A stretch of 36,921 nt of DNA from Acidimicrobiales bacterium (GCA_038199465.1 JBBPYZ010000038.1:1-36921), one strand, 5' to 3'. Shown: positions 15,923 through 36,921, numbered from the stretch's first letter. Notes: generated by a model not told the origin, from the letters alone. Made by a program: numbers and translations.

Positions 15923-16003
15923 CCCTCAGCCCTTCCTTCACGTCAGTGCCCGGCACGTTATCGGAGCCCGGAGCTGGTCGTCATAGCCGATGTGTTCCCC
16001 TGG

Positions 16004-17602: not shown

Positions 17603-17848
17603 CGGCGGCGTCCGCTTTGAGACGAGCGGTATCCTCGGACCACCCCCCTGCTTGCGGAGGTGCGCTCCGGCTCGCCGCCCCGATGTTCCTGTGCCGTGCA
17701 GCGGTGAGGGAGGTGGCGTGAGTTCCTCCCCCGCCGAGCGGAGGTGAGCCCCACCTCGTCTACGCAACCTGAACCGTCCCTTCGATGCCGAGCGTGGCTG
17801 GGGCAGGATAACGGAGCGCGTGGGGGACGGGCCGTAGGGTGGCTGGGG

Positions 17849-18754: not shown

Positions 18755-18776
18755 GGCCGGGCCGGCGCCGAGCCGT

Positions 18777-19157: not shown

Positions 19158-19164
19158 GCGTGCA

Positions 19165-19193
19165 ACCGTAACGCTAAGTGCTAACCGTTGCAA
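19165..19193 (-). promoter_or_regulatory. Candidate sigma-70-type promoter giving a leaderless transcript for the 18777..19157 gene
   Basis: The minus strand reads TTGCAA (19193..19188), a 17-nt spacer, TACGGT (19170..19165), 7 nt, then ATG at 19157. It lies in the least GC-rich stretch of the divergent spacer. Confidence 0.3.
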
Positions 19194-19259
19194 GCGGTTG
19201 GGCCGCGGGAAGGGTGTCCGCGAGGCGGGGAGGTGCCGGGTCTAGCCTCGTCCTCCCGT

Positions 19260-22200: not shown

Positions 22201-23132
22201 CCGCACCCGTCGACGCTCCCGAGCGGCCGGTGCCCGCCGACCTCCCGGCCGCCCTCCGGGCCCAGGTCGACCTCCGCCAGATCGACACCAACGCCTCGCT
22301 GCTGGTCTTTGAGAACGTGGCCTGGGCCCCCACCCGGGCCCAGCTGCCGGCCGGGGCGGCCGAGGCCGCCCGCGCCAAGAAGGCCGACGTCGCCGCCCTC
22401 GACCTCAGCGGCGCCGAGCCGGTGCTCGACCCGACCAGGCCCGGGTCGTCCCGCTTCCAGGGCGACGTGCAGGCCGGCGAGGTCCTGGTGGCCGAGGCCC
22501 CGAGCGGGTGGCAGCTGAAGGTCGACGGGCGGTCGGCCGAGCGACACCCGGCCTTTGGCGTGGTCGGCTTCACCGTCACCGCCCCCGGGACGGCCACGCT
22601 GCAGCTGAGCCCCCCTCTCCTCCACCGCCTGGCCGTCGTGGTGCAGGCCCTGCTGTGGCTCGCTGCGCTCGTGCTGGTCACGGGCGGCTCGCTCGGGGGA
22701 GCGTGGCCCTGGGGACGGGCCCGCCACCTCCGGTCGGCGGGCTCCCCCCCGCTGCCGCTCCGCCCGGAGGGCTCGGGCGTGGTGCTTCTCGATCCCGTCG
22801 GCGGCGCGGGGGCGATGGCCGCTGGCCTCGGGCCGCGATCCACGTTCGGCGACCCGCCACCGCGGGGTGGGCCGGAGCGCGCCGGACCCGCCCCCTTGCC
22901 GGACGACGTGACCGACGGGGATCGCTCTGACGCCGCCGACGATCCGGGCGACGAGGGACCAGCCGACGACCGCGACCTCTTGGACGACCTGGACGACGTG
23001 AGCGACCTGGACGACTGGGACGCCGGGGATCCCGTGCACCTCGAGGACGCTGACGACTGGGACGACACCGGGGGTCCGGGTGGGGCGGCTGCCGCCGACG
23101 ATCGGGAGCACCCTGAGGGGGGCTTCCGGTGA
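19260..23132 (+). CDS. Giant fusion protein: N-terminal GT2 (WbbL/COG1216-like) domain, polytopic membrane region, extracytoplasmic domain, final TM helix and acidic tail
   Basis: ATG 19260 is in frame with track ORF 19188..23132; GTG 19233 is an alternative start. The GT2 block contains VAVMVVCDPGPWFEESLTALAAQDYPALSILVVD, HDDAAP (DxD), GACLLVRADLFRRLGGFD and EDLDLCWRA. Many hydrophobic helices follow, split by a charged loop. A domain of about 330 aa (WMPDKVGEGAFRVLWIGDP...) precedes a last helix and an Asp-rich C-terminus. Confidence 0.85.
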   Translation: MDDLAPGQPALDEAPPVVAVMVVCDPGPWFEESLTALAAQDYPALSILVVDAASTTDPTERVAAAVPSAFVRRLHVDPGYAAAANEVLKVVKGASHLLFVHDDAAPAPDAVRLLLEAAYRGNAAITTPKLVAWDQPDLLLAVGESADPLGRPVAIVEPGEVDQGQHDAEREVLVAPGACLLVRADLFRRLGGFDRAAILGAEDLDLCWRAAVAGARTMTAPAARVRHRAALTNGERHSRLGDVRRLDLHLRLRAALVAATPLGFLVTLAQAGATAVTEAVVAIALGRRGNARMALGAFSSNLRSMGGLLESRQRLAALRKGGDPAAVRRLLARRGRLGALVREAGGDGGSGGERTRAELLRLGTSGWRSSGLRRHIVALGALALVLLIGSRHLLRGPMPQLGSLAALPEDPLQLLRTYLGGARSAGMGGLGAVPPAFALLGLASVALLGGTGLVGTLLVFGSLIAGVVGAARLARPLGSGRATAASAIAYAAVPLWPDALARGRLAGLVAYGLAPWLLLRLFRATGLAPFGADAPPEDGGTADVGLARSARRARRRAEANRPEPVLVGAGAGGALPFEPFAPGELEGLDGPPLQTPELGWTSGEALTEVGAQHALDEMGAFEDDVELDDLARVRVHHRGPAVRRLEPPPAPRRTRLQQVAAMAVLLALGTALAPALLPAAVVAALGLLASVAIAGEAAGVLRAARTAALGALGALVLLSPWSISLLRAGQWSALTGPARPLADAPRAFDLLRFSTGPLPVGPLPLLLLLAALLPLTTGRSWRAAWAARCWSVSLACFTIALVGGRGWLGVTALEPGVLLPFAAAPVALAIALGAAAFEVDLRGFSFGWRQLASLGAAGAVALACLPMLLGVHSGRWGAPTRDLAGVLSWMPDKVGEGAFRVLWIGDPAALPLTGWNLGDGLAYATSRNGPPTAADQWAGPQQGIDERLIDPVRSARSNDVVDLGHRLAPLGVRYLVIPLRAAPVDAPERPVPADLPAALRAQVDLRQIDTNASLLVFENVAWAPTRAQLPAGAAEAARAKKADVAALDLSGAEPVLDPTRPGSSRFQGDVQAGEVLVAEAPSGWQLKVDGRSAERHPAFGVVGFTVTAPGTATLQLSPPLLHRLAVVVQALLWLAALVLVTGGSLGGAWPWGRARHLRSAGSPPLPLRPEGSGVVLLDPVGGAGAMAAGLGPRSTFGDPPPRGGPERAGPAPLPDDVTDGDRSDAADDPGDEGPADDRDLLDDLDDVSDLDDWDAGDPVHLEDADDWDDTGGPGGAAAADDREHPEGGFR

Positions 23133-24520
23133 TCGCCGGCGGGCGCTTCCTGGCTGTGGGCGTCGTCCTCGCCACCCTCGGGGCCGGTGTCGTGATCGAC
23201 CGCCTCGACCGGCCCGCCCGCCCCGCCGTCCGCGAGGCGGCCGAGACGGCCTCGGGACCCACCATGGCCGGGGCCGACGTCGGCTCGAGCGCCTGGTTCT
23301 GCCCCGGCGGGCCCCTCGGCCGCGTCGATCAGGCCGACGTCACCGTCGCCCTGTCCAACACCACCGCCCGCTCGCTCTCGGCCCGGGTCACCGCCCTCCC
23401 CGTCTCCGGCCAGGCTGACCCCGTCGAGCGCCGGATCGACGTGCCGGCCCTCGGCTCCACCAGCGTCCGCCTGACCGAGCTGCTGGGAGGCACCACGCCG
23501 GCCGGCGCCACCATCGTCGCCCCCGGCGGGCTGGTGGCCCAGCAGGCCATCAAGACCCAGGACGGCTCGGCCATCGGCCCGTGTGCCTCCAGCGCCAACG
23601 ACCACTGGTTCACCGCGGTGGGCTCGACCGCCCAGGGCTCGTCGCTGGTGCTCAGCCTGCTGAACCCCTTCCCCGACGAGGCCATCGTCAGCATGGCCTT
23701 CTCCAGCGATCAGGGCCGCGCCGTGCCCGGCGACCTCCAGGGGCTGTTGGTGCCGGGCCGCTCGCTGCGGGTGGTCGACATCGGCGAGCACGTGCGCCGC
23801 CGTGAGGGGGTGTCCGCCGAGATCGTGGCCCGCCGTGGCCGCCTGGTCGTCGGCCGGAACTTCCGCAAGGGCGGAGGATCCAGTACGGTGCTGGCCGCCC
23901 CGGCGGCCGCCCCCACCTGGTACCTGCCCGGCGGGGTTCGGGCCGACGGGGTCACCAACCGGCTGGTGGTGGCCAACCCCTCGGACCGCGACGCCGAGGT
24001 CAGCGTCGAGCTGCGGCTGAAGGAGGGCGCCGTCGAGCCCTTCACCCTCACCGTGGCGGCTCAGGACCGCGCCGAGCTGAACCTCGACGACGCCCGGGTC
24101 CCGAAGGGCGTGCCCTACTCGATCGTCGCCCGCTCCCTCGAGGAGGTGCCGATCGTCGTCGAGCGCTCCACCGAGGGTCGGTCGGACCGCAGCGACGTGC
24201 TGGGCGGGACCACACCCGACCGGGCCTGGGTGGCGGCGGCGGTGGGCCCCGGCCAGGACGCCCTGGCCATCTACAACGCCGGCGACGGGCTGGCCGAGGT
24301 CACCGTCACCCCCCTCGACGGCGACGGCGTCCCCCTGACGGGCGAGCCCCTGCGCATCGAGCCCGGCGTGCGGGGCAGCCTCCGGCTCGACGACAAGCCG
24401 GCCGCCAAGGGCAACGCCGTCCTCGTCGAGTCCACCCAGCTGCTGGTCGTCGAGCGGGACAGCGGTGACGGCGCTCCCACCCAGGGCGGCACCGTGGCCG
24501 TCGCCCTCGGGCGGCGCTGA
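23129..24520 (+). CDS. Membrane-anchored extracytoplasmic beta-rich protein, DUF5719-like
   Basis: Track ORF of 463 aa. The GTG overlaps the previous stop as GTGA. It has an N-terminal TM anchor (FLAVGVVLATLGAGVVI) and a WFCPGG motif. Repeated strand-like segments recur (LSLLNPFPDEAIVSMAF, LVVANPSDRDAEVSVEL, LAIYNAGDGLAEVTVTP). The DUF5719 assignment is from memory of this gene pair in Actinobacteria. Confidence 0.7.
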   Translation: MIAGGRFLAVGVVLATLGAGVVIDRLDRPARPAVREAAETASGPTMAGADVGSSAWFCPGGPLGRVDQADVTVALSNTTARSLSARVTALPVSGQADPVERRIDVPALGSTSVRLTELLGGTTPAGATIVAPGGLVAQQAIKTQDGSAIGPCASSANDHWFTAVGSTAQGSSLVLSLLNPFPDEAIVSMAFSSDQGRAVPGDLQGLLVPGRSLRVVDIGEHVRRREGVSAEIVARRGRLVVGRNFRKGGGSSTVLAAPAAAPTWYLPGGVRADGVTNRLVVANPSDRDAEVSVELRLKEGAVEPFTLTVAAQDRAELNLDDARVPKGVPYSIVARSLEEVPIVVERSTEGRSDRSDVLGGTTPDRAWVAAAVGPGQDALAIYNAGDGLAEVTVTPLDGDGVPLTGEPLRIEPGVRGSLRLDDKPAAKGNAVLVESTQLLVVERDSGDGAPTQGGTVAVALGRR

Positions 24521-24538
24521 GTCCGTCGGGAAGCCGCG

Positions 24539-24961
24539 GTGGAACGTCTGGTGGTGGCTGCGGTGCTCGTGGCGGTGGTGGCCGTGGTCGCGCTCGTGGT
24601 GGGGCGCCGCCAGCGGTCGGACCCGCCGTCCCAGCCCCGACGGTGGCCGATGCCGGCCCAGCTCGACCGGGACGACTTCGAGGGGGCGGAGATCCCCTGG
24701 CTGGCCACCCTGTTCACCTCGGCCACCTGCGACTCGTGCGGTCGGATCGAGCAGATGGTGCGCCCGCTGGCCTCCTCGAGCGTCGCCGTGACCGTGGTGG
24801 CCTGGCAGGACGAAAAGGCGCTCCACGAGCGCTACGGCATCGAGGCCGTGCCCTGCTTCGTGCTGGCCGACGACGAGGGGGTGGTGCGCTACGGCTTCGT
24901 CGGCAGTGAGGTCACCGCCACAGATCTGTGGGCCGCCGTCGCCGAAGCCCGCAGTCTGTGA
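24539..24961 (+). CDS. Membrane-anchored thioredoxin-fold protein with a CxxC motif
   Basis: Track ORF of 140 aa with an N-terminal TM helix (VVAAVLVAVVAVVALVV). WLATLFTSATCDSCGRI contains CDSC in the position expected for a thioredoxin-like active site. AVPCFVLADDEG resembles the cis-Pro loop region. Confidence 0.65.
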   Translation: MERLVVAAVLVAVVAVVALVVGRRQRSDPPSQPRRWPMPAQLDRDDFEGAEIPWLATLFTSATCDSCGRIEQMVRPLASSSVAVTVVAWQDEKALHERYGIEAVPCFVLADDEGVVRYGFVGSEVTATDLWAAVAEARSL

Positions 24962-25026
24962 AATCCCGTAACATCCCCGCCAGAACGCCGCCCTTAGCTT
25001 AGGGCGCCAGCAGCGAACGCGGAACC

Positions 25027-25896
25027 TCAGGTGATGGGGGCCCGCCAGAGCGCGGCCCAGGTCAGGGGCCCGACCTTGCCGTCGGCCACCAAGCCCTTCT
25101 CGCTCTGGAACTTGCGAACGACACCGTCGGTGGCCCCGTCGAACACACCGTTCACCGGCACCCTCCAGCCCCGGTCCTGCAAGCGCTGCTGGACCTGGAG
25201 CACCGCAGCCCCCTGGGATCCTGCCTGCACCAGGCCAGGGTAGGGCGGCACCGTCGAGCCGGCCGGCGGCGGCGTGGGCGCCATCGGAGCCGGTGTCCCG
25301 GCGTGGCGGGTGAGGCGGCCGTACACCGCCAAGATGGTGGTCCCGTAGCGCGGGTCGCTGGCCCAGCGACCGTTGCCCAGCTGGTCCCAGTCACGTATCT
25401 GGCCGGTGGCCGTGAAGTAACGCCACCGCGGGTCGACCAGTGGGGTGCGCAGCTGGGCCGAGGTGATCGGGGCGGCCCAGCCCTTGAGGTGCTGGATCTG
25501 GGCCCGGACACCGATGCGGGCGGTGGGGAAGAGGCTGGAGCCGGTGCCGCCGTCGACAGCCCCTAGACCGGAGAAGTTGTTGTTCCCGGGAGGCATCCGG
25601 CTGGTGGGGAAGGTGAGCCAGCCGGACTCCACCATGGCCTGGCAGAAGGCGATGTCGCCACGCACCCCTTCCAGCGCCCCTTCGTCGAGGAAGAGCTGGG
25701 CCAGCGTGGTCACGGGCACGGTGGCACGGCTCCGGTGCCCCACCGAGGCGTACATGGCCGCGATCTGGCGGGCGCTGTACTGCGCGACCGCCCGAGGATG
25801 GGGGTGCCGGCCAGAGCCGGACGAGCGGTGGCCACCGGCAGGACGGCGGTGGCGGCCAACGTGGCCGCGCCGACCAGGAAGCCCCGCCGGCTGCAC
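25027..25896 (-). CDS. Peptidoglycan hydrolase (glucosaminidase-type domain plus C-terminal PG_binding_1 domain); apparently frameshifted at its 5' end
   Basis: Track ORF of 289 aa. AFCQAMVESGWLTFP...PGNNNFSGLG is glucosaminidase-like. The C-terminal GSQGAAVLQVQQRLQDRGWRVPVNGVFDGATDGVVRKFQSEKGLVADGKVGPLTWAALW is a classic peptidoglycan-binding repeat. Its Tat signal peptide lies in another frame (track ORF 25710..25925). Confidence 0.8.
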   Translation of the reverse strand: MQPAGLPGRRGHVGRHRRPAGGHRSSGSGRHPHPRAVAQYSARQIAAMYASVGHRSRATVPVTTLAQLFLDEGALEGVRGDIAFCQAMVESGWLTFPTSRMPPGNNNFSGLGAVDGGTGSSLFPTARIGVRAQIQHLKGWAAPITSAQLRTPLVDPRWRYFTATGQIRDWDQLGNGRWASDPRYGTTILAVYGRLTRHAGTPAPMAPTPPPAGSTVPPYPGLVQAGSQGAAVLQVQQRLQDRGWRVPVNGVFDGATDGVVRKFQSEKGLVADGKVGPLTWAALWRAPIT

Positions 25897-26006
25897 GCGA
25901 AGCTGGCGATCGGGTTGTCGGGCACGGCTTCTCCAGTGCTGGTGGCCCGGGAGGCCGGTGGAGGACGCTCTGCTTCAAGGCGAGGGCCCTGAAACGTTCC
26001 GGCATG

Positions 26007-27944
26007 CTAGCGAGCGGCGTCCGGGGCTGCTCGCATCCGCCCGGGGCCGGCCCCGGGACCTCCGGTATCCGCCGATGGTTCCTCGGCCGTGCGTGGAGAT
26101 CCCAGCTGCTCGATGGTCTCACGAGGCGGAGGGTGACCGAGTACCGTCCACTGCTGAGCTTCAGGCGCGGTCGGGTACTGGTCCCAGTACTCGTCGCTCA
26201 CCATATGGCGGTAGGCCCGGCCGTATGAGCGCTTCAGGGTGCCGAAGCGGAGCGGGATGCGCCCGGCGGTGAGGAGCATCTGGGGAAGCAGTCTGAAGAA
26301 GAGGTTGCGGTCCCTGGTGGCGACGAAGCCCCTCGCCCGTTGTCGGTCTCGGTAGAGGATCTGGGTCCGAAGCAGCGAGACGTGCAGGGCTCGCTGTTGG
26401 ACAGGCACGGCGCCGATGGGGCTGCGCTGCATCCGGCGAGGTAGGACGTGACCTCCGAGGAGCCCGATAGACGCGAGGCTGGCGGCCAGCTTCCTGATCT
26501 TGCTCTTCGAGGGTAGGTCGTCGACTGCCATGAGGGCCTCGGTGAGGGGTTCGATCCGTTCGCCGCGGTAGCGGGCCACCTCGTCGTTGAGCTTGGAATG
26601 ATCGATGGTGAGCCAATGTTCCGGTCCGCGAAGGAACTCACGCATGCCCAAGGTGATGCTGGCGGCGCTTGCGTACTTGAAGCTGAGCAGGCTGCGGCCG
26701 CAGATGTTCAGGTAACGGTTCAGGAGGTGCCACCACCTGACGTCGGGCTGGGCGAGCACGCTGATGAGTGCGAAGTTGCGGGTGTCATAGAACCAGGTGA
26801 GCGGGCCCTGCTTGTCATCGAAGTCGGCATGCCACAGGCCGATTCCGTTGAACGTCACGGTGTGGGAGCCGGCGTGGAGGAGGCCCCAACAGACGTCGTC
26901 GCCCCGGATGAAGGCCGGGATCGGGTTCTCCTCGGTGAGGCTCAACGGGAACGCGAAGTACCACCAGGCTCCGTAATCGATGTGTTCGTACTCTCGCTCG
27001 GCGCCCAGCAGCGCGGTCCAGTCAGCGAGGTCAAGGTCTTGGCCGAGGGCCCGAGTCGGGTAGACCGCGGTGCCGACGAAGCGGGCCCCCGCTTCGAACT
27101 GCCTGGTCTGAGCGCTCTGCTGGAGCATCGCCCCGGCGATGCAGAGGTGGTCGTCGCGGGCGTAGGAGAGGACCTGGATCGTACGGAAGACGATCTCGGG
27201 GTCGAAGCTGACGTCATCGTCCATGAACAGGACGTGGGTGGTGCCGGCCTGTCGGCGGAAGTGCTTGAGGCCCCGGGTGAAACCGCCGGCGCCGCCGGTG
27301 TTGGGGTTCGGGAGCACCGTGATGGACGTCCCGGCCGTGATCTGTGGATCGAGGTTGCGACCGTTGTCGACCACGGCGACCGCGAGCCGGTCGGCATAGG
27401 ACGGGGCCAGCTCGAGCTCTGCGATCAGACCGTTGAGGTTCGCCCTGACCTCGGCAGGTCGGTTGAAGGTGGTGATGACGAGCCCGAGCCGGGCGACGAG
27501 GCCGGGCGTGTCGCTGGTGCGCCACTGCGCGTTGCGAAGGGTGGCGCCGTCACCCAGGCAGCTGATGCGCAGGAACACCGCTCCGTCCCCGAGGGTGTCG
27601 AGGGGCGGGAGGCCGAGCTCGGACCAGGTCGGCTTGTCGGCGACGACCTCGGTGCTAGCGATGACGTCGGGACTCCGGTCGAGACGATCGTGGACCACCT
27701 CGATCCGGCAGGCGCCCGAGATCTCAACCGCGACCGTGAGCTGCCTGACCGTGGTGTGCCGCAGCCACTTCCCGACCCCGAAGGCGTTGAAGTAGGTGTC
27801 GAACTGCACGATCCCGCCGACGCCGAGACGCACCTGTCGATCGAGGACCGAGTGCTCGGCGTCGCGCACCGGCCTGACGTAGAGCTCGGTGCTGGGGCAC
27901 AGTTCGAAGGACGGGAAGCGGAACCGGCACAAGACGGTGGCCAA
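26007..27944 (-). CDS. GlfT2-family galactofuranosyltransferase (paralogue B)
   Basis: Track ORF of 645 aa with a TTG start that aligns with the start of its paralogue. N-terminal domain has FDTYFNAFGVGKW. The GT-A core has VITTFNRP, NTGGAGGF and LFMDDDVSF. Further blocks are YGAWWYFAFP, IRGDDVCWGL...WHADF and LRGPEHW. These match my recollection of M. tuberculosis GlfT2 (ATYFNAF, IPTFNRP, NLGGSGGY, FMDDDI, WDDADYGL). Confidence 0.88.
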   Translation of the reverse strand: MATVLCRFRFPSFELCPSTELYVRPVRDAEHSVLDRQVRLGVGGIVQFDTYFNAFGVGKWLRHTTVRQLTVAVEISGACRIEVVHDRLDRSPDVIASTEVVADKPTWSELGLPPLDTLGDGAVFLRISCLGDGATLRNAQWRTSDTPGLVARLGLVITTFNRPAEVRANLNGLIAELELAPSYADRLAVAVVDNGRNLDPQITAGTSITVLPNPNTGGAGGFTRGLKHFRRQAGTTHVLFMDDDVSFDPEIVFRTIQVLSYARDDHLCIAGAMLQQSAQTRQFEAGARFVGTAVYPTRALGQDLDLADWTALLGAEREYEHIDYGAWWYFAFPLSLTEENPIPAFIRGDDVCWGLLHAGSHTVTFNGIGLWHADFDDKQGPLTWFYDTRNFALISVLAQPDVRWWHLLNRYLNICGRSLLSFKYASAASITLGMREFLRGPEHWLTIDHSKLNDEVARYRGERIEPLTEALMAVDDLPSKSKIRKLAASLASIGLLGGHVLPRRMQRSPIGAVPVQQRALHVSLLRTQILYRDRQRARGFVATRDRNLFFRLLPQMLLTAGRIPLRFGTLKRSYGRAYRHMVSDEYWDQYPTAPEAQQWTVLGHPPPRETIEQLGSPRTAEEPSADTGGPGAGPGRMRAAPDAAR

Positions 27945-27945
27945 C

Positions 27946-28788
27946 TCAGAGCTCCTCGGCGAAGTAGCGGGCCTTGCGGGAAAAGTACAGGTAGCCCGTC
28001 AGGAAGATGGTGAGCGAGAGCGTGAGGAGCACGGCGAGGGTGGTGAGGCCGGGGCGGGCGCCGTCGAAGAGGATCCGCCGGTAGACCAGGATGAAGCGGG
28101 CCATGGGGTTGTACAGCAGGATGGTGCGGACGGGGATGTCGAGTCCGAAGAGATCGAGACGAGACGGGATCTGCTCGACTGGATAGATGATCGGGGTGAT
28201 GAAGAACCACACCGTCAGGGCCAGACCGGTGAGGTAGGGAACGTCACGGCTGCGCACGCTGGCGGCTGATAGGAACAGGGCGATCCCCGTGACGAAGAGG
28301 GTCTGCAGGAACATCACCACGATCAACCAGGGCAGCAAGGTGAGGGTGGAGAACCCGAAGACCAGAAGGAGCAGGACGTTGACGGTGAGCTCGATGGCCA
28401 GGGTGACGAGCAGGGAGAGGACGTTGGCGAACACGATCAGCTCGCGGGGGAAGTAGACCTTGCTGATCAGGGCGTGGGCGCCCAACATGGCTCCCGTCGA
28501 CCCCAGGATGCCGTTGGCCAGGTAGTTCCAGGGCAGCAGGCCGGCCAGGAGGAAGAAGGCAAAGTTGTCGTTGCCGCTCGGCTGGCCCGTCTCCGGGTTG
28601 GACCCCAAGAACAAGCCGAAGACGAGGGCGTAGCAGAGCGTGATGACCACGGGGTTGAGCAGCGACCACCCCCACCCGAGCAGGGACCGGCGGTAGCGGG
28701 TGCGCAGCTCCCGCAGGGTCAGGTTCTGCAGCAGCTCCTTGTGGGCGAAAACCTCGCGAGCGGCGGCGATCACGGCGCCGCGCACCAA
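27946..28788 (-). CDS. wzm: ABC-2 type polysaccharide export permease (Wzm/RfbD-like)
   Basis: Track ORF of 280 aa. LLQNLTLRELRTRYRRSLLGWGWSLLNP is the typical Wzm N-terminal block. There are six hydrophobic helices. GTG 28773, which overlaps the wzt stop as GTGA, is an alternative start. Confidence 0.9.
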   Translation of the reverse strand: MVRGAVIAAAREVFAHKELLQNLTLRELRTRYRRSLLGWGWSLLNPVVITLCYALVFGLFLGSNPETGQPSGNDNFAFFLLAGLLPWNYLANGILGSTGAMLGAHALISKVYFPRELIVFANVLSLLVTLAIELTVNVLLLLVFGFSTLTLLPWLIVVMFLQTLFVTGIALFLSAASVRSRDVPYLTGLALTVWFFITPIIYPVEQIPSRLDLFGLDIPVRTILLYNPMARFILVYRRILFDGARPGLTTLAVLLTLSLTIFLTGYLYFSRKARYFAEEL

Positions 28789-29948
28789 CCGCCACCGAGA
28801 GCGACGAGACCGCCCTCGTCGGCGCCGGGCTGCGGGTCGACCTCGAAGTCGAAGTGATCGGTGGCGTCCAGCAGCTCCTGGGTCTCGTCGTCGACGAGCC
28901 AGGTGTGCAGCACGTAGGAGCCTGGCAGCAGCGGGAGCTCGGGGATCTCGTAGGTCAGCGCCATGCCCGCGGCCAGCGGGACGCTGAGCGCCGGGTTCGA
29001 CCGGGTGCTGACCTGGCTCACGAACACGCCGTCGCTGCGACGGATGTCGATGCCGAGCACGTGGCGGTGGTCGCTGCTGATCGGGTCGACCGTCAAGCGC
29101 AGGGCCAGCTTTTCCCTGGCCACGGGCCGCTCGCCGGATTCGGTGACCAACTCTGCCACCCTGACCCGGGCGGCTCCGCTACCGAAGCGCAACCTGCCCT
29201 CGTCGTCAACCACCGCGTCAGGGTGCACCGACCGTTGGTACTCCTCGATGACCTCGCTGGTGGGGCCCAGCGCCTTCAGGTCGCCGCGGGCGATCCAGAC
29301 CACCTCGCTGCACAGCTGGCGGACCAGCCCCAGGTCGTGGCTGACGATCACCACGGTACGACCGCTGGCCCGCAGCTCGGCGATCTTCTCGGCGCAGCGG
29401 CGCTGGAACACCGCGTCTCCGACTGACAGCGCTTCGTCCACCAGCAGCACGTCGGGTTCCACGTTGACCGCCACGGCGAAGCCCAGGCGGGCGTGCATGC
29501 CCGAGGAGTAGGTCTTCACCTGGTTGTCGATGAACTCCTCCAGCCCGGAAAAAGCGACGATGGCGTCGAGACGGTGGTCGAGGGTCTTGCGGGACAACCC
29601 CAGGATCGACCCGTTCAGGTAGACGTTCTCCCGACCGGTCAGGTCGGGGTGGAACCCGGCTCCCAGCTCGAGCAGCGCCGACACCTTCCCCTTCACCGCT
29701 ACGGTCCCCGCATTGGGGACCAGGATGCGGGCCATCAGCTTCAACGAGGTGCTCTTGCCCGAGCCGTTGGATCCGATAAGGCCGAAGGTCGTCCCCTCGG
29801 GGATCTCGAAGCTCACGTCCGACAGGGCGCTCAGGTCGCTGTAGCGGCCCTGGCCCCGGTGGAGCACCCTCGCCTTGAGGGAGTCGTTGCGCTCGTGCCA
29901 GATCCGGTAGCTCTTCGACACGCCCTGGAAGCTGACTGCTGAGGTCAC
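28770..29948 (-). CDS. wzt: Polysaccharide ABC transporter ATP-binding protein (Wzt/RfbE-like) with a C-terminal extension
   Basis: GTG 29948 (VTSAVSFQGVSKSY) is in frame with track ORF 28770..30191 and overlaps the glf stop as GTGA. Walker A is GLIGSNGSGKST, the signature is YSSGMHARLGFA, Walker B is VLLVDEALSVGD, and the H-loop is in VIVSHD. About 150 residues lie beyond the nucleotide-binding domain. Confidence 0.9.
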   Translation of the reverse strand: MTSAVSFQGVSKSYRIWHERNDSLKARVLHRGQGRYSDLSALSDVSFEIPEGTTFGLIGSNGSGKSTSLKLMARILVPNAGTVAVKGKVSALLELGAGFHPDLTGRENVYLNGSILGLSRKTLDHRLDAIVAFSGLEEFIDNQVKTYSSGMHARLGFAVAVNVEPDVLLVDEALSVGDAVFQRRCAEKIAELRASGRTVVIVSHDLGLVRQLCSEVVWIARGDLKALGPTSEVIEEYQRSVHPDAVVDDEGRLRFGSGAARVRVAELVTESGERPVAREKLALRLTVDPISSDHRHVLGIDIRRSDGVFVSQVSTRSNPALSVPLAAGMALTYEIPELPLLPGSYVLHTWLVDDETQELLDATDHFDFEVDPQPGADEGGLVALGGGWCAAP

Positions 29949-31096
29949 GGCCCGATCGGATCGACGAAGAACTGCGGCGCGGGCTCGTTGCGCGCCAGCC
30001 GGGCCAGGAAGCCGGAGGCCGCGTCGAGGGCCTCCTTCACCGTGGCGTCCATGTCGAGGTAGCGGTAGGTCCCGAGCCGGCCGAGGAAGGTGGTGCGCTC
30101 GGCCGTCCAGGCCATCTCGATGTAGCGGTGCAGCTGCGCCTTCTCCCGCACCTGGCGGACCGGGTAGTACGGGAGGTCGTCGGGCCCGCACGCCCGGCTG
30201 AACTCACGGTAGATCGTGGTGCGGTCATGGCGTTCCCACGGCGCGAAGTGCTTGAACTCGGTGATGCGGGTGAAGGGCACATCGGCGTCGCAGTAGTTCA
30301 TCACCGGGCAGCCCTGGTGGTCGCCGTCGTGGCGTTCGACCTCGAAGTCGAGGGTCCGGTAGGCGAGGCGCCCGTGGGCGTAGCCGAAGTAGGCGTCGAT
30401 CGGCCCGGTCCAAAAGCAATGGTCGTAGGCGGCGGCGTCAGCCCGTTGCACCGCCTGCCCCAAGGTGACGGCGATGCCGGGATGGTCGAGGATCGCTTCG
30501 ATCAGCGCCGTGTATCCGAGGGCCGGAATCCCCATGTGGGGATGGTCGAAGTAGACGTCGTCGTAGTTGAAGCGCACGGGCAGCCGCTTCAGGATGCTGG
30601 CCGGCAGCTCGCTCGGATCCACCCCCCACTGCTTCTTGGTGTAGCCGGCGAAGAAGGCCTCGTACAGGTCCTTGCCCACGAAGGCCAGCCCCTGCTCCTC
30701 GAAGCTGACCGGCTCGAGAATGGAGGGGTCGGCCCGGGCTGCGATGTACGTCCGAGCCTCGGCCGGCCCCATCGTCGTGCCGAAGAACTGGTTGATGGTG
30801 AGGAGGTTCACCGGAAGGGCGTACACCCGACCCTGAGCCGTGGCCTTCACCCTGTGGCTGTAGGCCTCGAAACGCCCGAACCGGTTCACGTACTCCCACA
30901 CCTCGGGCCACGCCGTGTGGAAGATGTGGGGCCCGTACACGTGCACCATCACCCCCGTGGCGTCGTCGCGGGCGGTGTGGCAGTTGCCGGCCACGTGATC
31001 CCGCACGTCGAACACCTCGACCCGGTGCCCGGCCTCGGCCAGCTGGCGGGCGATCACCGAACCGGAGAAGCCAGCCCCGGCCACCAGGACCCTCAT
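29945..31096 (-). CDS. glf: UDP-galactopyranose mutase
   Basis: ATG 31096 (MRVLVAGAGFSGSVIARQLAE) is in frame with track ORF 29945..31474 and overlaps the upstream stop as ATGA. YGPHIFHT, the FAD-binding GxGxxG motif and the YRTLDFE and PYYP blocks are typical of UGM. Confidence 0.95.
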   Translation of the reverse strand: MRVLVAGAGFSGSVIARQLAEAGHRVEVFDVRDHVAGNCHTARDDATGVMVHVYGPHIFHTAWPEVWEYVNRFGRFEAYSHRVKATAQGRVYALPVNLLTINQFFGTTMGPAEARTYIAARADPSILEPVSFEEQGLAFVGKDLYEAFFAGYTKKQWGVDPSELPASILKRLPVRFNYDDVYFDHPHMGIPALGYTALIEAILDHPGIAVTLGQAVQRADAAAYDHCFWTGPIDAYFGYAHGRLAYRTLDFEVERHDGDHQGCPVMNYCDADVPFTRITEFKHFAPWERHDRTTIYREFSRACGPDDLPYYPVRQVREKAQLHRYIEMAWTAERTTFLGRLGTYRYLDMDATVKEALDAASGFLARLARNEPAPQFFVDPIGP

Positions 31097-32907
31097 TCGG
31101 GCCGCCGGGCTTCGTGGGCGTCGCTGGGGGCGTCGCCGCCGAACTGACGCTGCCAGTAGGCGTCGCCGGTGAGGGCGGGGTAGGCCGCCCGGTAGTCGTC
31201 CCTCAGCTGACCGAACCGGCTCGGGATGCGGGCCGCCGTCCTGGCCATCTCGCCGAGGGTTGAGAAGAACCGCTTCCGGTCGCGGCTGGCGACGAAGCCC
31301 TCGCCGGTGGCCTCGTAGCGGTACACCACCTCCTCCCGCCCGAGGACGCCGTAGGGCGACCATGCCGCCATCTCGAGGGCGACGGGGGGCCGGCGGCAGA
31401 TCCGGGCGGGCAGGGCATGGCCCGACAGGACCAGTGCGGAGGCGAGCCCGCCGATCTTCACCACCCCGGGCCACCTCGGCGTGAAGGAGGGGACGCCGAG
31501 CGACGCACGCTCGAGCGGGCCGGACCGTTCCCCCGGGTGCTGGCGGATGTCATGGTTCACCTGCTCGTGGTCGAGCTCCAGCCACGCCTCCGGCCCGGCG
31601 AGGAACTGGCGCATCCCGGCGATGTCCGCCGCGGCGGTGTCGTACTTCATGGCCAGCGCCATCCGGGTGGTGTGGTACACGAAGCGGCGGGTGAGGTGGA
31701 AGGCCGAGAACCGGTCCGAGGCCAGCAAGCTCACCAGCGACAGGTTGCGGGATTCGTAGTAGAACGCCGCCGGACCGTTCTTCTGGGCGAAGTGCTGGTG
31801 CCACACCCCGATCCCGTTCATCGTGACCGTGTGCTGGCCGGCGTGGCGCAACCCGAAGCAGATGTCGTCGCCCCGCACAAAGACCGGCAGCGGGTTGGCC
31901 TCGGTCAGCTCCAGAGGGAAGGCGTAGAACCACCAGGCGCCGTAGCCGGCGGGTCGCTCGACGTCGTTCTCCACCAGGTTGCGCCACGTGCGCAGGTCGA
32001 GGTGGCTGCCGATCGGCCGGAACGGCCGCACGCCCTCGGTCCGGAAGGCGGCCCCCGCCTCGAACTGGACATAGGGCGTCTCCTCCATCAGCATCGCACC
32101 GGCTACGCATAGCTGCGGGTCACGGGCGTGAGCAAGCAGCTCGATCGTGCGAAAGATCACCTCCGGCTCAAAGCTGATGTCGTCGTCCATGAACAGGACG
32201 TGGCTGACCTTGCCGCCGTCGCGGAAGTGCATGAGGCCACGGGCGAAGCCCCCGGCGCCGCCCAGGTTCCTGTTCGGCACCACGGTGATCGGGACCGTTG
32301 CCGGCAGGGACACCTTGACGTTGCTGCCGTTGTCGACCACCAGGATCTCGAGCAGCTCGAGGTAGCCGGGCTCCTCCTTCAGCGCGTCGGCTAGGCGGAC
32401 CAGGTTCCGCTCCAGGTACTCGGGCCGGTTGTAGGTGGTGATGACCACGCCCAGGGACACCGCACGGGCGGGCTGGGAGTCGGTGGTGATCTCGCCGCCG
32501 AAGAAGGTCGTCTCCGGACTCAGACCACGGATCTTCAGATAGAGCTGGCCGTCGGTCAGGTCGTCCAACGAGAGCGGTTCGAGCTCGAACCAGGATCGAG
32601 CTTCGGAGCTGAAGACCCCGGCCGCGACGGTGCGGGCGGCGCGGTGGGCGTGGTTCAGGACCAGCTCGGCCTCGAAGTGCCCGCGGGCCTCGAAGCGGAC
32701 GACGATGTGCTCCACCCCCGTGTGCCGACGCCACTTCCCCACGCTGAACCCGTTGAAGTAGGTGTCGAGGTGGGCGGAAGAGCCCTGCAACAAGCGGACC
32801 TCGGCCATGGCGTACGAGAACCACGAGCCGTTGAGGCAGTTCACGTAAAGCTCGGCCTGCGGGCACAGGTCGATCTTGGGGAGGAGGAACCGCTGCAACC
32901 TTGACAT
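31093..32907 (-). CDS. GlfT2-family galactofuranosyltransferase (paralogue A)
   Basis: ATG 32907 (MSRLQRFLLPKIDLCPQAELYV) is in frame with track ORF 31093..33090 and is preceded by AAAAGGGG. Blocks LDTYFNGFSVGKW, VITTYNRP, NLGGAGGF, LFMDDDISF, YGAWWFYAFP, VRGDDICFGL...WHQHF and LAGPEAW are present. Confidence 0.88.
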   Translation of the reverse strand: MSRLQRFLLPKIDLCPQAELYVNCLNGSWFSYAMAEVRLLQGSSAHLDTYFNGFSVGKWRRHTGVEHIVVRFEARGHFEAELVLNHAHRAARTVAAGVFSSEARSWFELEPLSLDDLTDGQLYLKIRGLSPETTFFGGEITTDSQPARAVSLGVVITTYNRPEYLERNLVRLADALKEEPGYLELLEILVVDNGSNVKVSLPATVPITVVPNRNLGGAGGFARGLMHFRDGGKVSHVLFMDDDISFEPEVIFRTIELLAHARDPQLCVAGAMLMEETPYVQFEAGAAFRTEGVRPFRPIGSHLDLRTWRNLVENDVERPAGYGAWWFYAFPLELTEANPLPVFVRGDDICFGLRHAGQHTVTMNGIGVWHQHFAQKNGPAAFYYESRNLSLVSLLASDRFSAFHLTRRFVYHTTRMALAMKYDTAAADIAGMRQFLAGPEAWLELDHEQVNHDIRQHPGERSGPLERASLGVPSFTPRWPGVVKIGGLASALVLSGHALPARICRRPPVALEMAAWSPYGVLGREEVVYRYEATGEGFVASRDRKRFFSTLGEMARTAARIPSRFGQLRDDYRAAYPALTGDAYWQRQFGGDAPSDAHEARRPE

Positions 32908-33261
32908 GGGCCCCTTTTGGCGTTCGGGCTCGGGGCCCATCCGGTTGGCCGAGAGTATACGCGCCCTCGCTGCGGACGGACAGACGGGCGTGGTGTCACC
33001 CGGCCTCACCGATGGTCGAACGTCACTGTCAGCTGACGATCGCCGGCTCCGATGGTGCGCGCCGGGCCCTTCAGGCGGATGCGGGCCCACAATGACCTCG
33101 ACCTCGATCTGGGCGTCGCTGGCGTAGGGCGACGAGCAGTCGCCAGCTCCGAGCTGAAACCGACGATCCTTGCCGTGTTCGAGGGCAACTACAGCGTCTT
33201 CGGGGCCCTCAAGAGGTGGAAGGCACTGGCCCGCCGGGAGGTGATCGTGGGCAGGGACCGC

Positions 33262-35316
33262 TTAACTGGGCGCCGGCCAGGAAGGGTCGCGCTCGGCGTC
33301 GTAGGGGCCGTGGGGGCGGCCGACCGGGGCGGGGGCCTGGGCCGGGGTCGGGTAGCCCGGACCCGTCCCCAGGGTAGATCCCGTGCCGTTGGCAGCGGGG
33401 GCCCTCGGTGAGAACGTCGGGACGGGCGCCGACTTGGGCCCGGTGGGGTGGATGGGGCGGCCGGCGGCGGCGTCGACCAGGCGACCCACCTCCGCCCCGG
33501 TGATCGTCTCCTTGGCGAGAAGGGCGGCGGCGACGGCGTCGAGCCCGGCCCGGTGCTCGCCCAGCAGGTGGAGGGCCCGCTCCTCGGCGGCCCGGAGGAT
33601 CTTCTCGACCTCCTGGTCGATAACCCGACTGGTGTCGTCGGAGTAGTCCTTGGAGTGCAGCAGGTCCTCGCCCAGGAACACCGCGTCGTTGGCTCCCCAG
33701 GCCATCGGCCCGATCCGCTCGCTCATGCCGAACTCGCGCACCATGCGCCGGGCCATCTCGGTGGCCCGCTGCAGGTCGTTGCCCGCCCCGGTCGAGAGCG
33801 ACCCGATCACCAGCCGCTCGGCGCAGCGGCCCCCCATCAGCACCGCCAGGGAGTCCTCGAGGTGCTCGCGCCAGTAGGTGTGGCGCTCCTCGATCGGCAG
33901 CTGCTGGGTGGCGCCCAGGGCCATGCCGGTGGGCAGGATCGTGACCTTGTGGACCGGGTCGGCGTCGACGAGCACGTAAGCGGTCACGGCGTGGCCGCCC
34001 TCGTGGAAGGCGGTGGCCTCCTTCTCCTTGTCGCTCAGCATCACCGACTCGCGGCGCTGGCCCATCAGGACCCGGTCACGGGCGGCCTCGAAGTCGACCA
34101 TCGCCACCTCGGTGGCGCCCCGCCGCACGGCCTGCAGCGCCGCTTCGTTCACGAGGTTGGCCATGTCGGCGCCGGCCATGCCCGGGGTGCCCCGGGCCAC
34201 CACGGCGAGGTCGACGTCGGGACCGATGCGGGTGCCCTGGCTGTGGACCCGGAGGATGGGCAGCCGCTCGGAGAGGTCGGGGAGGGGCACCACGATCTGG
34301 CGGTCGAAGCGCCCGGGCCGCAGGAGGGCCGGGTCGAGGACGTCGGGCCGGTTGGTGGCGGCCAGGATCACCACGCCCTCAGAGGTCTCGAAGCCGTCCA
34401 TCTCGGAGAGCATCTGGTTCAGGGTCTGCTCGCGCTCGTCGTGGCCGCCGCCGACCCCGGCGCCCCGCTTGCGCCCGATCGAGTCGATCTCGTCCAGGAA
34501 GATGATGGAGGGGGCCTGCTTGCGGGCGGTGGCGAACAGGTCGCGGACCCGGGAGGCGCCCACGCCGACGAACATCTCCATGAAGTCCGACCCGGTGACC
34601 GGCAGGAAGGGCACCCCGGCCTCGCCGGCCACGGCCCGGGCCAGCAGCGTCTTGCCGGTGCCGGGGGGCCCGACGAGCAGGATGCCCTTCGGGATCCTGG
34701 CCCCGATCTGTTTGAACGTGGCCGAGCTCCGAAGGAAGTCGACGACCTCGGTGATCTCCTGCTTCACCCCGGCGTAGCCGGCCACGTCGGCGAAGGTCGT
34801 CTTGGGCCGCTCGGTCGAGTACACCTTGGCCCGGCTCTTCCCGATCGACATCACCCCGCCCATCTGGCTCTGGGCCCGCCGCCCCATCCACACCGAGAAC
34901 CCGATCACCGCCGCCACCATCAGCAGCAGGGGCAGGAACGACAGCAGCGGGTTGGAGGTGGGGGTGCGGAACGAGACGTCGGCGCCGGCGTCGCGCAGGG
35001 CCTTCACGTCCCCGTCGATGGCCGGCTGGGGCCCTTCGCTCGAGAAGCGGGTGCCGTCGCCCAGCCGGCCCGTGATGCGCCCGGTGCCGTTGCTGATGAC
35101 CGCCTCGGTCACCTGCCGCTCGGGCACCAGCCGCCCGAGAAGCTCGGAGTAGCCGATGTTGCGCTGGTCGGGCCCGCCGCCGCCCCGCAGGAGGAGCAGG
35201 GCGAGGGCCACGACCACACCGAGGGAGATCGCCGCCCAGCGCCACCGGGAGCTCGAGCCGCTTGCGGGCCGCTCTGGGGGCCGGCCCGGCCGCAGGTCGT
35301 TGGGGACTCGGGCCAC
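33262..35316 (-). CDS. ftsH: ATP-dependent zinc metalloprotease FtsH
   Basis: Track ORF of 684 aa. Walker A is [22 protein letters not shown], Walker B is IIFLDEIDS, the second region of homology is [19 protein letters not shown], and the zinc motif is HEGGHAV. It has two N-terminal TM helices and a Pro/Ala/Gly-rich tail. Confidence 0.97.
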
Positions 35317-35424
35317 GACGAGATGTTAGGTGGCGGCGCCGCGGGCCCAGACCGGTCAGGGCCGCTTCGCGCCATCCGCGACGACGGCCGGGTGGGGGCG
35401 TATGTTGGCCGTGTGGCCGACTCC

Positions 35425-35634
35425 ATGCGGTGCTGCAAGCCCGGCTGCGGCGGCCCCGTAGCCGCCAGGCTCACCTACGACCACGCTGGAGCCACGGCCT
35501 GGGTCGACGATCCGGGTGGCGACGGCGGCTGGTCGCTGTGCGCCGGCCACGCCGACCGCCTGCGCTTGCCGAAGGGCTGGACCCTGGTCGACCGGCGCAC
35601 GCCGCGGCCGGCCCGGGCCCTGCTGGCCTCCTGA
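35425..35634 (+). CDS. DUF3499 family small Cys/His protein
   Basis: Last 70 codons of track ORF 33448..35634, starting at ATG 35425; GTG 35413 is an alternative. The protein is MRCCKPGCGGPVAARLTYDHAGATAWVDDPGGDGGWSLCAGHADRLRLPKGWTLVDRR. The pattern C..C...LTY...C..H...L..P.GW is as I remember it for actinobacterial DUF3499 (the Rv3258c family). Confidence 0.7.
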   Translation: MRCCKPGCGGPVAARLTYDHAGATAWVDDPGGDGGWSLCAGHADRLRLPKGWTLVDRRTPRPARALLAS

Positions 35635-35687
35635 GCCTTTCCGACCCCCCTGCGCCTTTTCCAGCAGAGGCCCGTACGCTGACGGCC

Positions 35688-36458
35688 ATGGCCGCGCCCA
35701 GCGAAGTCGCGCCCCACGACGCCCCCGCTCGGCGTGACCCGGCCGAGCGGATGCTCGGTTGGACCGGGATAGGGGTGGCCGCCTTCGCCTTTTTGATCGG
35801 CCTGTTCGCCGCCTCAATCATCGGGGCGGTGTGGGTCACCGCCCGGAACCTCGACCAGGCCGAGACCCGAGGTGACCTCGGCTTCTCGGTCGCCACCTCG
35901 GCCGGCCTGTGGGTCGGCTTCATCGCTCTGCCTCTCCTGTGGTCGCGCCGCCACGGCGGCCCGGTGCAGCTCCTCGGCCTCCGGGCCCGCTGGGTCGACC
36001 TCCCCCTCGGGCTGGTCGTGGGCCTCGGGTCCACCGCCCTCGCCGCCCTGGCCTCGTCGCTCGTGCTCGACGCCGGCCAACAGGACGACCTCGAGAGCAA
36101 GGCCCGCACCACCGTCGACCGGGCTTCGGGGCCGGTGGCGGCCGTGGTGCTGGTCGTGGTGCTGTGCGTGATCACCCCGGTCGCCGAGGAGATCTTCTTC
36201 CGGGGCCTGCTCTTCCGGTCGCTGTACCGGGTGGCCGGGCTTGCCGTCTCGGTCCTCACCGCCGGCGCGGTGTTCGGGCTGGTCCACTTCGAGGCCGCCC
36301 CCGTCCCCGCCGTCGTGGTGGCCATGCAGCTCGGGCTGCTGGCGCTGTTCGGGGCCGCGCTGTGCCTGCTGGTCCACCGCACCGGGAGGCTGGCCGCCTC
36401 CATCGTGGCCCATGCCGCCTTCAACGCCGTCACCGTCATCACCCTCCTCCTCCGGTGA
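35688..36458 (+). CDS. CPBP family intramembrane glutamic endopeptidase (CAAX protease/Abi family)
   Basis: ATG 35688 is in frame with track ORF 35262..36458. The three CPBP motifs are present in order: EEIFFRG, FGLVHF and HAAFNAV. There are multiple TM helices. Confidence 0.85.
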   Translation: MAAPSEVAPHDAPARRDPAERMLGWTGIGVAAFAFLIGLFAASIIGAVWVTARNLDQAETRGDLGFSVATSAGLWVGFIALPLLWSRRHGGPVQLLGLRARWVDLPLGLVVGLGSTALAALASSLVLDAGQQDDLESKARTTVDRASGPVAAVVLVVVLCVITPVAEEIFFRGLLFRSLYRVAGLAVSVLTAGAVFGLVHFEAAPVPAVVVAMQLGLLALFGAALCLLVHRTGRLAASIVAHAAFNAVTVITLLLR

Positions 36459-36510
36459 TGCCGCCACCCCTGACACCGCCTCGGCCCGGGTGGTGCGCCA
36501 GGATGGGCCG

Positions 36511-36921
36511 GTGACCCGCAGGATGCCCAACGTGGTGCCGCCGACCACCAGGCAGCTGGTCACCCTGGCCAACATCCTGGTCGTCGCCTCCTGCTGCGCC
36601 TTTGTGTGGCTCCACCTGCAGCCCCACCTGCTGCTGCGCAACACCACCCCGTCGGGCGGCGACATGGGGGCGCACGTGTGGGGGCCGGCCTACCTGCGCA
36701 ACACCCTGCTCCCCTCAGGCCGCATCACCGGGTGGAGCATGGACTGGTACGCCGGTTTCCCCGCGCTGACCTTCTACTTCCCGCTGCCCAGCCTGATGAT
36801 CGCCCTGCTCAGCTTCTTGGTGCCCTCCGGGATCGCCTTCAAGCTGGTCACGGTGCTCGGGCTGGTCACCCTGCCCGCCTCCGCCGCCGCCTTCGGGGTG
36901 CTCAGCGGCATGCGGCGGCCC
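36511..36921 (+). CDS. Polytopic membrane protein, 5' fragment (GT-C-like, GGDxGAH loop motif); runs off the right edge
   Basis: Not in the track because it is open-ended. My translation from GTG 36511 (or ATG 36523) is VTRRMPNVVPPTTRQLVTLANILVVASCCAFVWLHLQPHLLLRNTTPSGGDMGAHVWGPAYLRNTLLPSGRITGWSMDWYAGFPALTFYFPLPSLMIALL... GC3 is high and the frame stays open to position 36921. The acidic GGD motif follows TM1. Confidence 0.6.
   Translation, partial: MTRRMPNVVPPTTRQLVTLANILVVASCCAFVWLHLQPHLLLRNTTPSGGDMGAHVWGPAYLRNTLLPSGRITGWSMDWYAGFPALTFYFPLPSLMIALLSFLVPSGIAFKLVTVLGLVTLPASAAAFGVLSGMRRP

Follow-up and report, generated by a model that had tools for sequence, protein, structure and literature searches.

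A strain-variable operon with two paired GlfT2-like enzymes and a Wzm-Wzt-type exporter in an Acidimicrobiales bacterium

GlfT2 is the textbook example of a processive enzyme that forms two linkages with one active site, and it is a tuberculosis drug target. In the mycobacterial galactan pathway, GlfT2 (Rv3808c) is accompanied by Glf (Rv3809c), GlfT1 (Rv3782) and a type V Wzm-Wzt exporter. On the minus strand of a 36,921-nt stretch of DNA from an Acidimicrobiales bacterium (GCA_038199465.1, JBBPYZ010000038.1:1-36921; this whole stretch is called the window), five genes at 26007-32907 are arranged in the order A, glf, wzt, wzm, B, and both A and B encode GlfT2-like enzymes. This locus raises the question why two such enzymes should be kept in one operon. 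The reading favoured here, with a probability of roughly 0.6, is that the locus is a strain-variable galactofuranan cassette dependent on an ATP-binding cassette (ABC) transporter, in which two specialised polymerases act on the same chain.

The five-gene operon and its variable block

The five co-directional genes were delimited by frame-specific GC content at third codon positions (GC3) together with a listing of open reading frames, in a window of about 70% GC. The features of the operon and of the block around it are given below.

31093..32907, minus strand: A, GlfT2-like putative galactofuranosyltransferase, 604 aa, Phe/Gln type (F351, Q371), with PF17994, PF00535 and PF19320
29945..31096, minus strand: glf, predicted UDP-galactopyranose mutase, 383 aa, PF03275 at 244.8 bits
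28770..29948, minus strand: wzt, 392 aa from a GTG start, ATPase of an ABC exporter, carbohydrate-binding domain at the C-terminus, PF00005 and PF14524
27946..28773, minus strand: wzm, ABC-2 permease, 275 aa from GTG 28773, PF01061
26007..27944, minus strand: B, GlfT2-like putative galactofuranosyltransferase, 645 aa, Trp type (V245, W353, L370), TTG start, with PF17994, PF00535 and PF19320
25027..25896, minus strand: peptidoglycan hydrolase gene 110 nt downstream of B, within the variable block, PF01832 (glucosaminidase) and PF01471 (PG_binding_1)
24953..33268, no strand assigned: variable block of 8.3 kb, hydrolase gene plus the five-gene operon, between a thioredoxin-like gene and ftsH (blastn against locus L164)
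32908..33261, minus strand: presumed promoter region, 354 nt from the ftsH stop to the A start, with the ribosome-binding site AAAGGGG (sequence reading)

Reading of the minus strand bore out the gene order and all the junctions that an earlier note on this DNA had given (ATGA, GTGA, either GTGA or a 19-nt overlap, and a 1-nt gap). The A gene begins at ATG 32907, preceded by its ribosome-binding site, and its stop overlaps the glf start within ATGA at 31096-31093; likewise, the glf stop overlaps the wzt start within GTGA at 29948-29945. The wzt stop TGA lies at 28772-28770, so that a GTG start of wzm at 28773 gives a GTGA overlap (28773-28770), and an alternative in-frame TTG at 28788 gives the overlap of 19 nt. 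The GTG is preferred because the orthologues called in loci L083 and L084 have the same length of 275 aa and the same 4-nt overlap with wzt. The wzm stop (27948-27946) is separated by the single base 27945 from the TTG start of B at 27944, which agrees with the alignment of B-type proteins, where position 1 is invariant. With glf, the NCBIfam model TIGR00031 scored 294.7 bits, slightly below its cutoff of 303.75. A promoter and terminator scan of 24800-33400 gave nothing above shuffled expectation, including no sigma-70-like consensus site above chance in the presumed promoter region, and Rfam gave zero matches in the entire window, the 354-nt upstream region included.

The block was delimited by comparison with locus L164 (GCA_038255915.1), whose FtsH is 95% identical to that of the window. 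By blastn, L164 is collinear at 90-92% nucleotide identity with window positions 17746-24952 and 33269-36921, and 24953-33268 is absent from it; instead, the ends of the thioredoxin-like gene and of ftsH are separated in L164 by about 50 bp. The absent segment is exactly the five-gene operon together with the glucosaminidase/PG_binding_1 gene. GC is 0.67-0.69 in the block versus 0.73-0.79 in the adjacent flank, and GC3 is 0.83-0.89 versus 0.94-0.96 in the flanking genes. Both block ends are spanned by contigs in independent public metagenome assemblies from soil, outdoor and hypolith samples, and therefore the arrangement is not an assembly chimera. When public contigs were compared with the junctions in search of the block-less form, only short-sided, unreliable joints were found. 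The borders showed no direct, inverted or terminal repeats, integrase or tRNA, and the block is therefore described as an insertion/deletion difference and not as a mobile element. The difference may have come about by gain or by loss; either way the polymer is dispensable at the strain level. Since a relative about 91% identical does without the cassette, its product would seem to be less a core component of the wall than a surface antigen that varies between strains, perhaps in response to phages or grazers.

Two GlfT2-fold enzymes, their pairing and their class-specific residues

Pairwise alignment of the two proteins, starting at residues 4/5, gave 44% identity between A and B over 589 aa (E 5e-168), in keeping with the previous observation that they align from their first residues yet differ at many positions. 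The tripartite GlfT2 layout noted in both was also recovered: PF17994 (N-terminal beta-sandwich), PF00535 (GT-A core) and PF19320 (C-terminal helical domain) were all found on one chain, above gathering score, in A as well as in B. Both proteins align nearly full-length with the GlfT2 enzymes of M. tuberculosis (4FIX) and Nocardia brasiliensis (9DTP, 9NJ0, 9NJ1), with E values of 6e-33 to 2e-36 for A against the PDB GlfT2 sequences and 1.5e-40 for B against 4FIX. AlphaFold (AF2) models, built as monomers on a 101-sequence alignment, reached a mean predicted local distance difference test (pLDDT) score of 94.6 for A and 91.1 for B, and disorder was confined to the tails (residues 601-645 in B). 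With Foldseek, the model of A matched 4FIX at E 1.4e-43 and a template-modelling (TM) score of 0.81, and that of B at E 1.5e-41 and TM 0.76-0.78; over all GlfT2 crystal structures, 9DTP, 9NJ0 and 9NJ1 alike, TM was 0.76-0.82, and the next-best folds stood at about 0.3. By these full-length matches in sequence and fold, both proteins belong to the GlfT2 family, and not to the non-galactofuranosyl GT2 families, clustering with which the earlier note had named as a way in which its reading might fail.

The catalytic motifs were then compared. In A they are DDD at 241-243, GDD at 346-348 (with the catalytic base D348) and WH at 369-370 (with the metal ligand H370); in B the corresponding residues are D242-244, D349-350 and H372, and in M. 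tuberculosis GlfT2 they are D256-258, D371-372 and H396. Mutagenesis of GlfT2 ties D256-D258 and D371-D372 to metal binding and catalysis (PMC7168186). A and B both retain the DDD, GDD and WH motifs, as do 90% or more of the 101 relatives, and the Asp residues are invariant. By sequence, neither copy is a pseudoenzyme, which had been another way for the reading to fail, and both look catalytically competent. In addition, this whole lineage has Gly and Phe in place of the acceptor-groove tryptophans W370 and W399 of GlfT2, and the linkage pattern of the lineage may accordingly differ from that of GlfT2.

How widespread the double arrangement is had been left as a question. Loci were typed by tblastn, 80 from species-representative genomes and 79 from metagenomes, and the following arrangements were found.

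A-glf-wzt-wzm-B, the order of the window: L001, L083/L084, L085, L091 and L132, with fragments L086, L087 and L099
A-glf-B, exporter not in between: L003, L082 (= L102), L092 and L094
glf plus one GlfT2-like gene (36-41% identity to A and B): 118 loci, mostly freshwater/marine Ilumatobacteraceae
B-type gene alone: about ten contigs, mostly short (L004, L053, L088, L090, L093, L095-L098, L118)
A second tandem pair, C-D: L104, L135 (= L166) and L145

The five-gene order thus recurs in the loci of the first line, and A-glf-B in four more. A was accompanied by B in all ten contigs long enough to judge. The single-copy loci have a housekeeping context, with no wzm-wzt and no GlfT1 nearby; at L166, the C-D pair is found together with glf and a divergent wzt-wzm pair whose Wzt carries Wzt_C. 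When the 18 other proteins of the window were searched against all loci by tblastn, no conserved synteny with the operon was seen, and the five genes form the conserved unit. The operon-bearing sequencing runs are soil, hypolith, rock and sand metagenomes. All the close named homologues of FtsH, and most named relatives of A, belong to Acidimicrobiales. When 1.84 billion cluster representatives (clusters at 50% identity) were searched with a profile, 1,938 family members were returned at E <= 1e-30, and therefore the GlfT2 fold is far from restricted to mycolic-acid bacteria; given the size of the family, galactofuranose polymers may be widespread among the uncultured Acidimicrobiia of soil and freshwater. 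In several of the proteins (P0250-P0254, 974-1020 aa), the match to the GlfT2 profile begins at about residue 385, and the N-terminal extension is of the size of a UDP-galactopyranose mutase, so that fusions of Glf with GlfT2 may be present.

Alignment and phylogeny together with GlfT2, likewise proposed beforehand, placed A and B in separate clades. The tree was built by neighbour-joining (NJ) from 543 trimmed columns with 200 bootstraps and was rooted on two solved GlfT2 sequences, with the following support.

Single clades: B 99%, A 76%, C 100%, D 100%
Groupings: C+D 96%, A+C+D 79%, A+B+C+D apart from the single-copy clade 89%

Mean identity between the A and B clades is 43%, and that to the mycobacterial-type enzymes is 25-26%. 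The A/B duplication is therefore an old one within this actinobacterial lineage, with both copies co-inherited. B was the fastest-evolving gene of the operon in six of six orthologue comparisons; identities to L083, for example, are 66% for A, 76% for glf, 76% for wzt, 68% for wzm and 61% for B.

The differences that are fixed between A and B are few, and they are clustered beside all three catalytic motifs. Two positions distinguish the classes.

Three residues after the catalytic base (A351/B353; Tyr375 in M. tuberculosis): A Phe 9/9, C Phe 3/3, single-copy Phe/Tyr 122/123, B Trp 16/16, D Trp 2/2
After the metal-binding His (A371): A Gln 9/9, C Gln 3/3, single-copy Ala 123/123, B variable, D Ala 2/2

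In addition, DDD is followed by Val and WH preceded by Leu in B, each in 16 of 16 sequences. Same-contig pairs among the database hits consisted of one Phe/Gln type and one Trp type in eight of eight cases, C/D included. In the model of A, a predicted helix at 347-359 begins near the catalytic Asp348, and residue 351 likely lines the active-site groove because it is one turn (i, i+3) from D348, on the same helix face. The Phe/Trp pattern fits either one split with later homogenisation of C/D, or the same change evolved twice; either origin implies that both types must be represented in a pair. For mutagenesis, this gives two definite targets, namely the site beyond the catalytic base that holds Phe or Trp and the site beyond the metal-binding His that holds Ala or Gln.

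These data bear on whether one copy might be superfluous, serving for dosage or backup, degenerating, or acting as a non-catalytic scaffold subunit. A and B do share their fold and all catalytic motifs, and since GlfT2 is a homotetramer (PMC7168186), one of them could conceivably serve as the structural subunit of a mixed oligomer. However, the duplication is old, both copies are retained in every A-bearing lineage, the catalytic residues are invariant in both and the class-specific residues are fixed, so that we regard redundancy as highly improbable. Instead, the obligate co-occurrence, the separate old clades and the Phe/Trp switch beside the catalytic base support the view that A and B are non-redundant.

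Exporter, initiating enzymes and the putative pathway

In the operon, genes for an ABC-2 permease and a separate ATPase overlap and are encoded beside polymerising glycosyltransferases, which is the layout of an ABC-transporter-dependent (Wzm-Wzt) pathway. In O-antigen systems, the carbohydrate-binding domain of Wzt recognises some feature that marks a completed chain, and in this way links export with chain termination. The C-terminal domain of Wzt was called as PF14524 (Wzt_C) at 31.9 bits against a cutoff of 30.4, and it was also called in the L083, L084 and L166 orthologues; taken in isolation, it gave no sequence match in the PDB, and no terminator gene that could be its partner was identified in the operon. 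The best PDB matches of Wzt were TagH/TarH and the full-length Wzt of A. aeolicus (8DKU/7K2T, aligned residues 10-352, E about 1e-58), and mycobacterial RfbE (9QFX) was a weaker match than these. The NCBIfam equivalogs for galactan exporters remained far below cutoff (NF050108, 170.1 versus 400 bits; NF050109, the permease, 66.6 versus 380 bits), and they were outscored by TagH models (223.9 bits). The mycobacterial Wzt is without a carbohydrate-binding domain and is encoded in a wzt-glfT1-wzm operon (PMC13018209).

A single exporter could in principle serve two products, if A and B each made a galactofuranan of their own, different in linkage or acceptor, and shared Wzm-Wzt. The B-type genes that stand alone in other genomes speak for such independence, as does the rapid evolution of B, which is expected of a determinant of a variable product. 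It appears improbable, since A is never found without B (10/10), the carbohydrate-binding domain of a Wzt normally recognises one defined glycan feature, and the presence of a Phe/Gln type and a Trp type in every pair suits cooperation better than independence.

The earlier note had also stated that the operon is without GlfT1, and at the locus this was confirmed. With the GlfT1 equivalog NF050113 (cutoff 330 bits), the best hit in the window, to the GT-A core of A, reached 29.7 bits, and the next, to a 1315-aa GT2 (19185-23132), reached 20.4 bits. A further GT2, at 7078-8184, is not GlfT1 but a polyprenyl-phosphate sugar synthase of the ArnC/PgfS kind. In the collinear flank of L164, which extends past the window end, a GT2 is present without a GlfT1 match, and within the 10-kb flanks of L082 and L083 no small GT2 gene was called. 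The absence of GlfT1 holds for the locus only.

This absence could mean that one of the two GlfT2-fold paralogues adds the first galactofuranose (Galf) residues, taking the role of GlfT1, and that the other is processive, a strict primer/extender split that would be a special case of the two-polymerase reading. It would fit with the lack of GlfT1 at the locus and in the flanks searched; moreover, the mycobacterial GlfT1 gene lies inside the wzt-glfT1-wzm operon (PMC13018209), and here B follows wzm after 1 nt. Yet GlfT1 is a small single-domain GT2, while A and B both keep the three-domain scaffold, which in GlfT2 is tied to processivity and tetramer formation. The single-copy loci of Acidimicrobiia also lack a nearby GlfT1, so that in all these genomes the gene for a separate primer enzyme may lie at some other place. 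A strict split of this kind is therefore considered somewhat unlikely.

For the two-polymerase reading we suggest the following course. Glf would convert UDP-galactopyranose to UDP-galactofuranose. At the cytoplasmic face of the membrane, A and B would extend a chain from a primer linked to polyprenyl diphosphate, for which genes outside the operon would be responsible. The two would act as partners on one chain, each adding a different segment or linkage type. Wzm-Wzt would export the lipid-linked chain once the carbohydrate-binding domain of Wzt recognises the glycan, and the exported chain would probably be attached to the cell wall or peptidoglycan. We propose that the A/B split divides the work that the active site of mycobacterial GlfT2, and probably also that of the single-copy enzyme of Acidimicrobiia, does alone. 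What was observed is the gene content, the intact motifs, the predicted fold, the recurrence of the pair, the residues that mark each class and the accessory nature of the block; the donor sugar, lipid carrier, product, export substrate, wall attachment and division of labour in the proposed course are all inferred.

Several points weigh against this reading. The donor, acceptor, linkage and product of A and B are predictions, and for the transfer of galactofuranose it is the presence of glf in the same operon that lends support. Pfam and NCBIfam scans of the window genes gave no initiator of the WecA/TagO type, adaptor transferase, chain terminator or LCP ligase, and the anchor and fate of the chain are assumed by analogy. 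The tree is an NJ tree whose root sequences were transcribed from alignment output, and its support for clade A is just 76%. The class-specific substitutions are a handful and conservative (I/V, V/L, F/W), and their placement in the groove comes from helix geometry, not from coordinates. Finally, in L088 and L093 the stand-alone B genes adjoin a PRK07208-type FAD flavoprotein and a fused ABC exporter; given B-type genes without A, B may be self-sufficient or use another donor.

At three stand-alone loci of the Trp type (L088:81-5414, L093:1659-7095 and L004:9878-13936), the B-type gene is followed by the flavoprotein and the fused exporter (ABC_membrane plus ABC_tran), which replace glf and wzm-wzt; the matches to these neighbours in L004, as in L097, were partial. 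The PRK07208-type flavoprotein is a distant relative of UDP-galactopyranose mutase.

If B used a different donor, the product would be a heteropolymer or a capped chain, and B might add the terminal residue that is read by the Wzt domain. Stand-alone B adjoins this flavoprotein and not glf, the derived residues of B lie beside all three catalytic motifs, and the operon holds no other terminator candidate. On the other hand, the donor-side motifs of B are conserved with A and GlfT2, glf is the only sugar-nucleotide gene of the operon, and stand-alone B appears in the tree as a nested sub-branch of the B clade, where the context may be secondary. Taken together, a second donor seems quite unlikely.

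The two-polymerase reading can also be carried further. A and B may be obligate partners in a single polymerase, perhaps as a mixed tetramer, with the linkage alternation of GlfT2 divided between two active sites; the split would have arisen twice (A/B and C/D) on the present tree, with the same Phe-to-Trp change beside the catalytic base, and in the sub-lineages that have an Emb-type gene next to B (L083, L086) the product would be an arabinogalactan-like wall polymer outside Corynebacteriales. This extension is doubtful, and we consider it unlikely as a whole.

Known systems and neighbouring genes

The locus was compared with systems already described. Like the mycobacterial galactan genes, it places glf beside a three-domain GlfT2-fold polymerase with the same DDD, DD and His motifs, and in both cases the presumed route is cytoplasmic synthesis of a Galf polymer on a lipid, followed by export through a type V Wzm-Wzt transporter. 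In contrast, A and B are only 25-26% identical to GlfT2; two GlfT2-fold enzymes are present, with no GlfT1 at the locus and all genes in one operon; the exporter scores are far under the NCBIfam cutoffs, and the groove residues W370/W399 are changed to Gly/Phe. In addition, Wzt carries a carbohydrate-binding domain that is absent from its mycobacterial counterpart (PMC13018209), and the block is dispensable at the strain level, whereas mycobacterial galactan is essential.

Orthologues of GlfT2 outside mycobacteria, including the Galf polymerase STM0724 of the Salmonella T1 antigen, were surveyed by Whitfield's group; with 23-38% identity, they make Galf homopolymers with one to three linkage types from a single active site (PMC11294581). 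The Salmonella STM0724 locus and the O-antigen galactan loci of Klebsiella (WbbM/WbbN/WbbO, Wzm-Wzt, Glf) resemble the present one in being strain-variable, ABC-transporter-dependent surface-glycan loci with glf. However, they use one GlfT2-type enzyme plus small adaptors (WbbN, WbbO) or a polymerase of another family, whereas here two GlfT2-fold paralogues are found without an adaptor. The exporters of Aquifex aeolicus and of the E. coli O9a type share with this one a Wzt composed of a nucleotide-binding domain and a C-terminal Wzt_C, but theirs reads a chain-terminating residue from a terminator enzyme, and here a terminator gene is not seen. The single-copy glf-GlfT2-like loci of Ilumatobacteraceae (freshwater acIV Acidimicrobiia) are similar in their 36-41% identity, in having glf immediately upstream and, in L165, in a PG-binding hydrolase neighbour; they differ in that their only polymerase is of the Phe(Tyr)/Ala type and that the surroundings are housekeeping genes, with wzm-wzt not nearby. 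This single-copy state appears to be the unsplit state.

In the literature searched, no description of paired GlfT2 paralogues was found. ABC-dependent Galf-polymer loci and GlfT2 outside mycobacteria are known (PMC11294581); distinct here are the paired, diverged GlfT2-fold polymerases, the lack of a small initiating transferase, the exporter with a binding domain and the host among Acidimicrobiia. Diverged A and B beside a single-copy sister lineage offer a natural comparison for the residues that set acceptor register and linkage choice.

Among the neighbouring genes in related contigs, a full-length Emb-type arabinofuranosyltransferase gene is convergent to B at L083:16828-19902 (minus strand), and an Emb-type gene is also seen at L086:2467-2700; the window is without one. 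The L083 protein matches EmbC 7BVH at E 7e-113 and carries Arabino_trans_N, Arabinose_trans and Arabino_trans_C of Pfam. Such a gene beside B hints at an arabinogalactan-like polymer outside Corynebacteriales.

Several other loci lie elsewhere in the window. At 3424-8184 (plus strand), a GtrA-like protein, an 889-aa membrane protein and an ArnC/PgfS-like synthase are encoded in a row. The 889-aa protein (4424-7093) gave no Pfam, NCBIfam or PDB match, and it was rejected as a counterpart of the 872-aa neighbour of A in L083, to which it is unrelated. This segment resembles a set of genes by which a surface polymer would be glycosylated outside the cytoplasm, and in the other loci no synteny of it with the galactan operon was seen. 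A PRK07208-type flavoprotein (NF005548, 806 bits; annotated as hypothetical) is encoded at 12589-14247 (plus strand), between a GDP-mannose 4,6-dehydratase and a PMT_2-like glycosyltransferase; being of the same family as the neighbour of stand-alone B, it may be a sugar-nucleotide mutase-like enzyme. Next to it, tandem PMT_2-like GT-C genes at 14252-15925 and 16004-~17700 (both minus strand) each show 72-73% nucleotide identity to a single L164 gene (19551-21024), and they are a local duplication in the genome of the window. The 1315-aa GT2 gene, followed by a DUF5719 gene, occupies 19185-24520 (plus strand); with about 91% nucleotide identity in L164, this is a stable flank of the variable block.

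The hydrolase gene of the variable block is not conserved beside B in other loci. A PG-binding hydrolase gene adjoins a GlfT2-like gene both in the window (25027-25896, paired) and at L165:11807-14128 (single-copy; SpoIID plus PG_binding_1). The two hydrolases are unrelated, and their positions are a hint of a connection with the cell wall.

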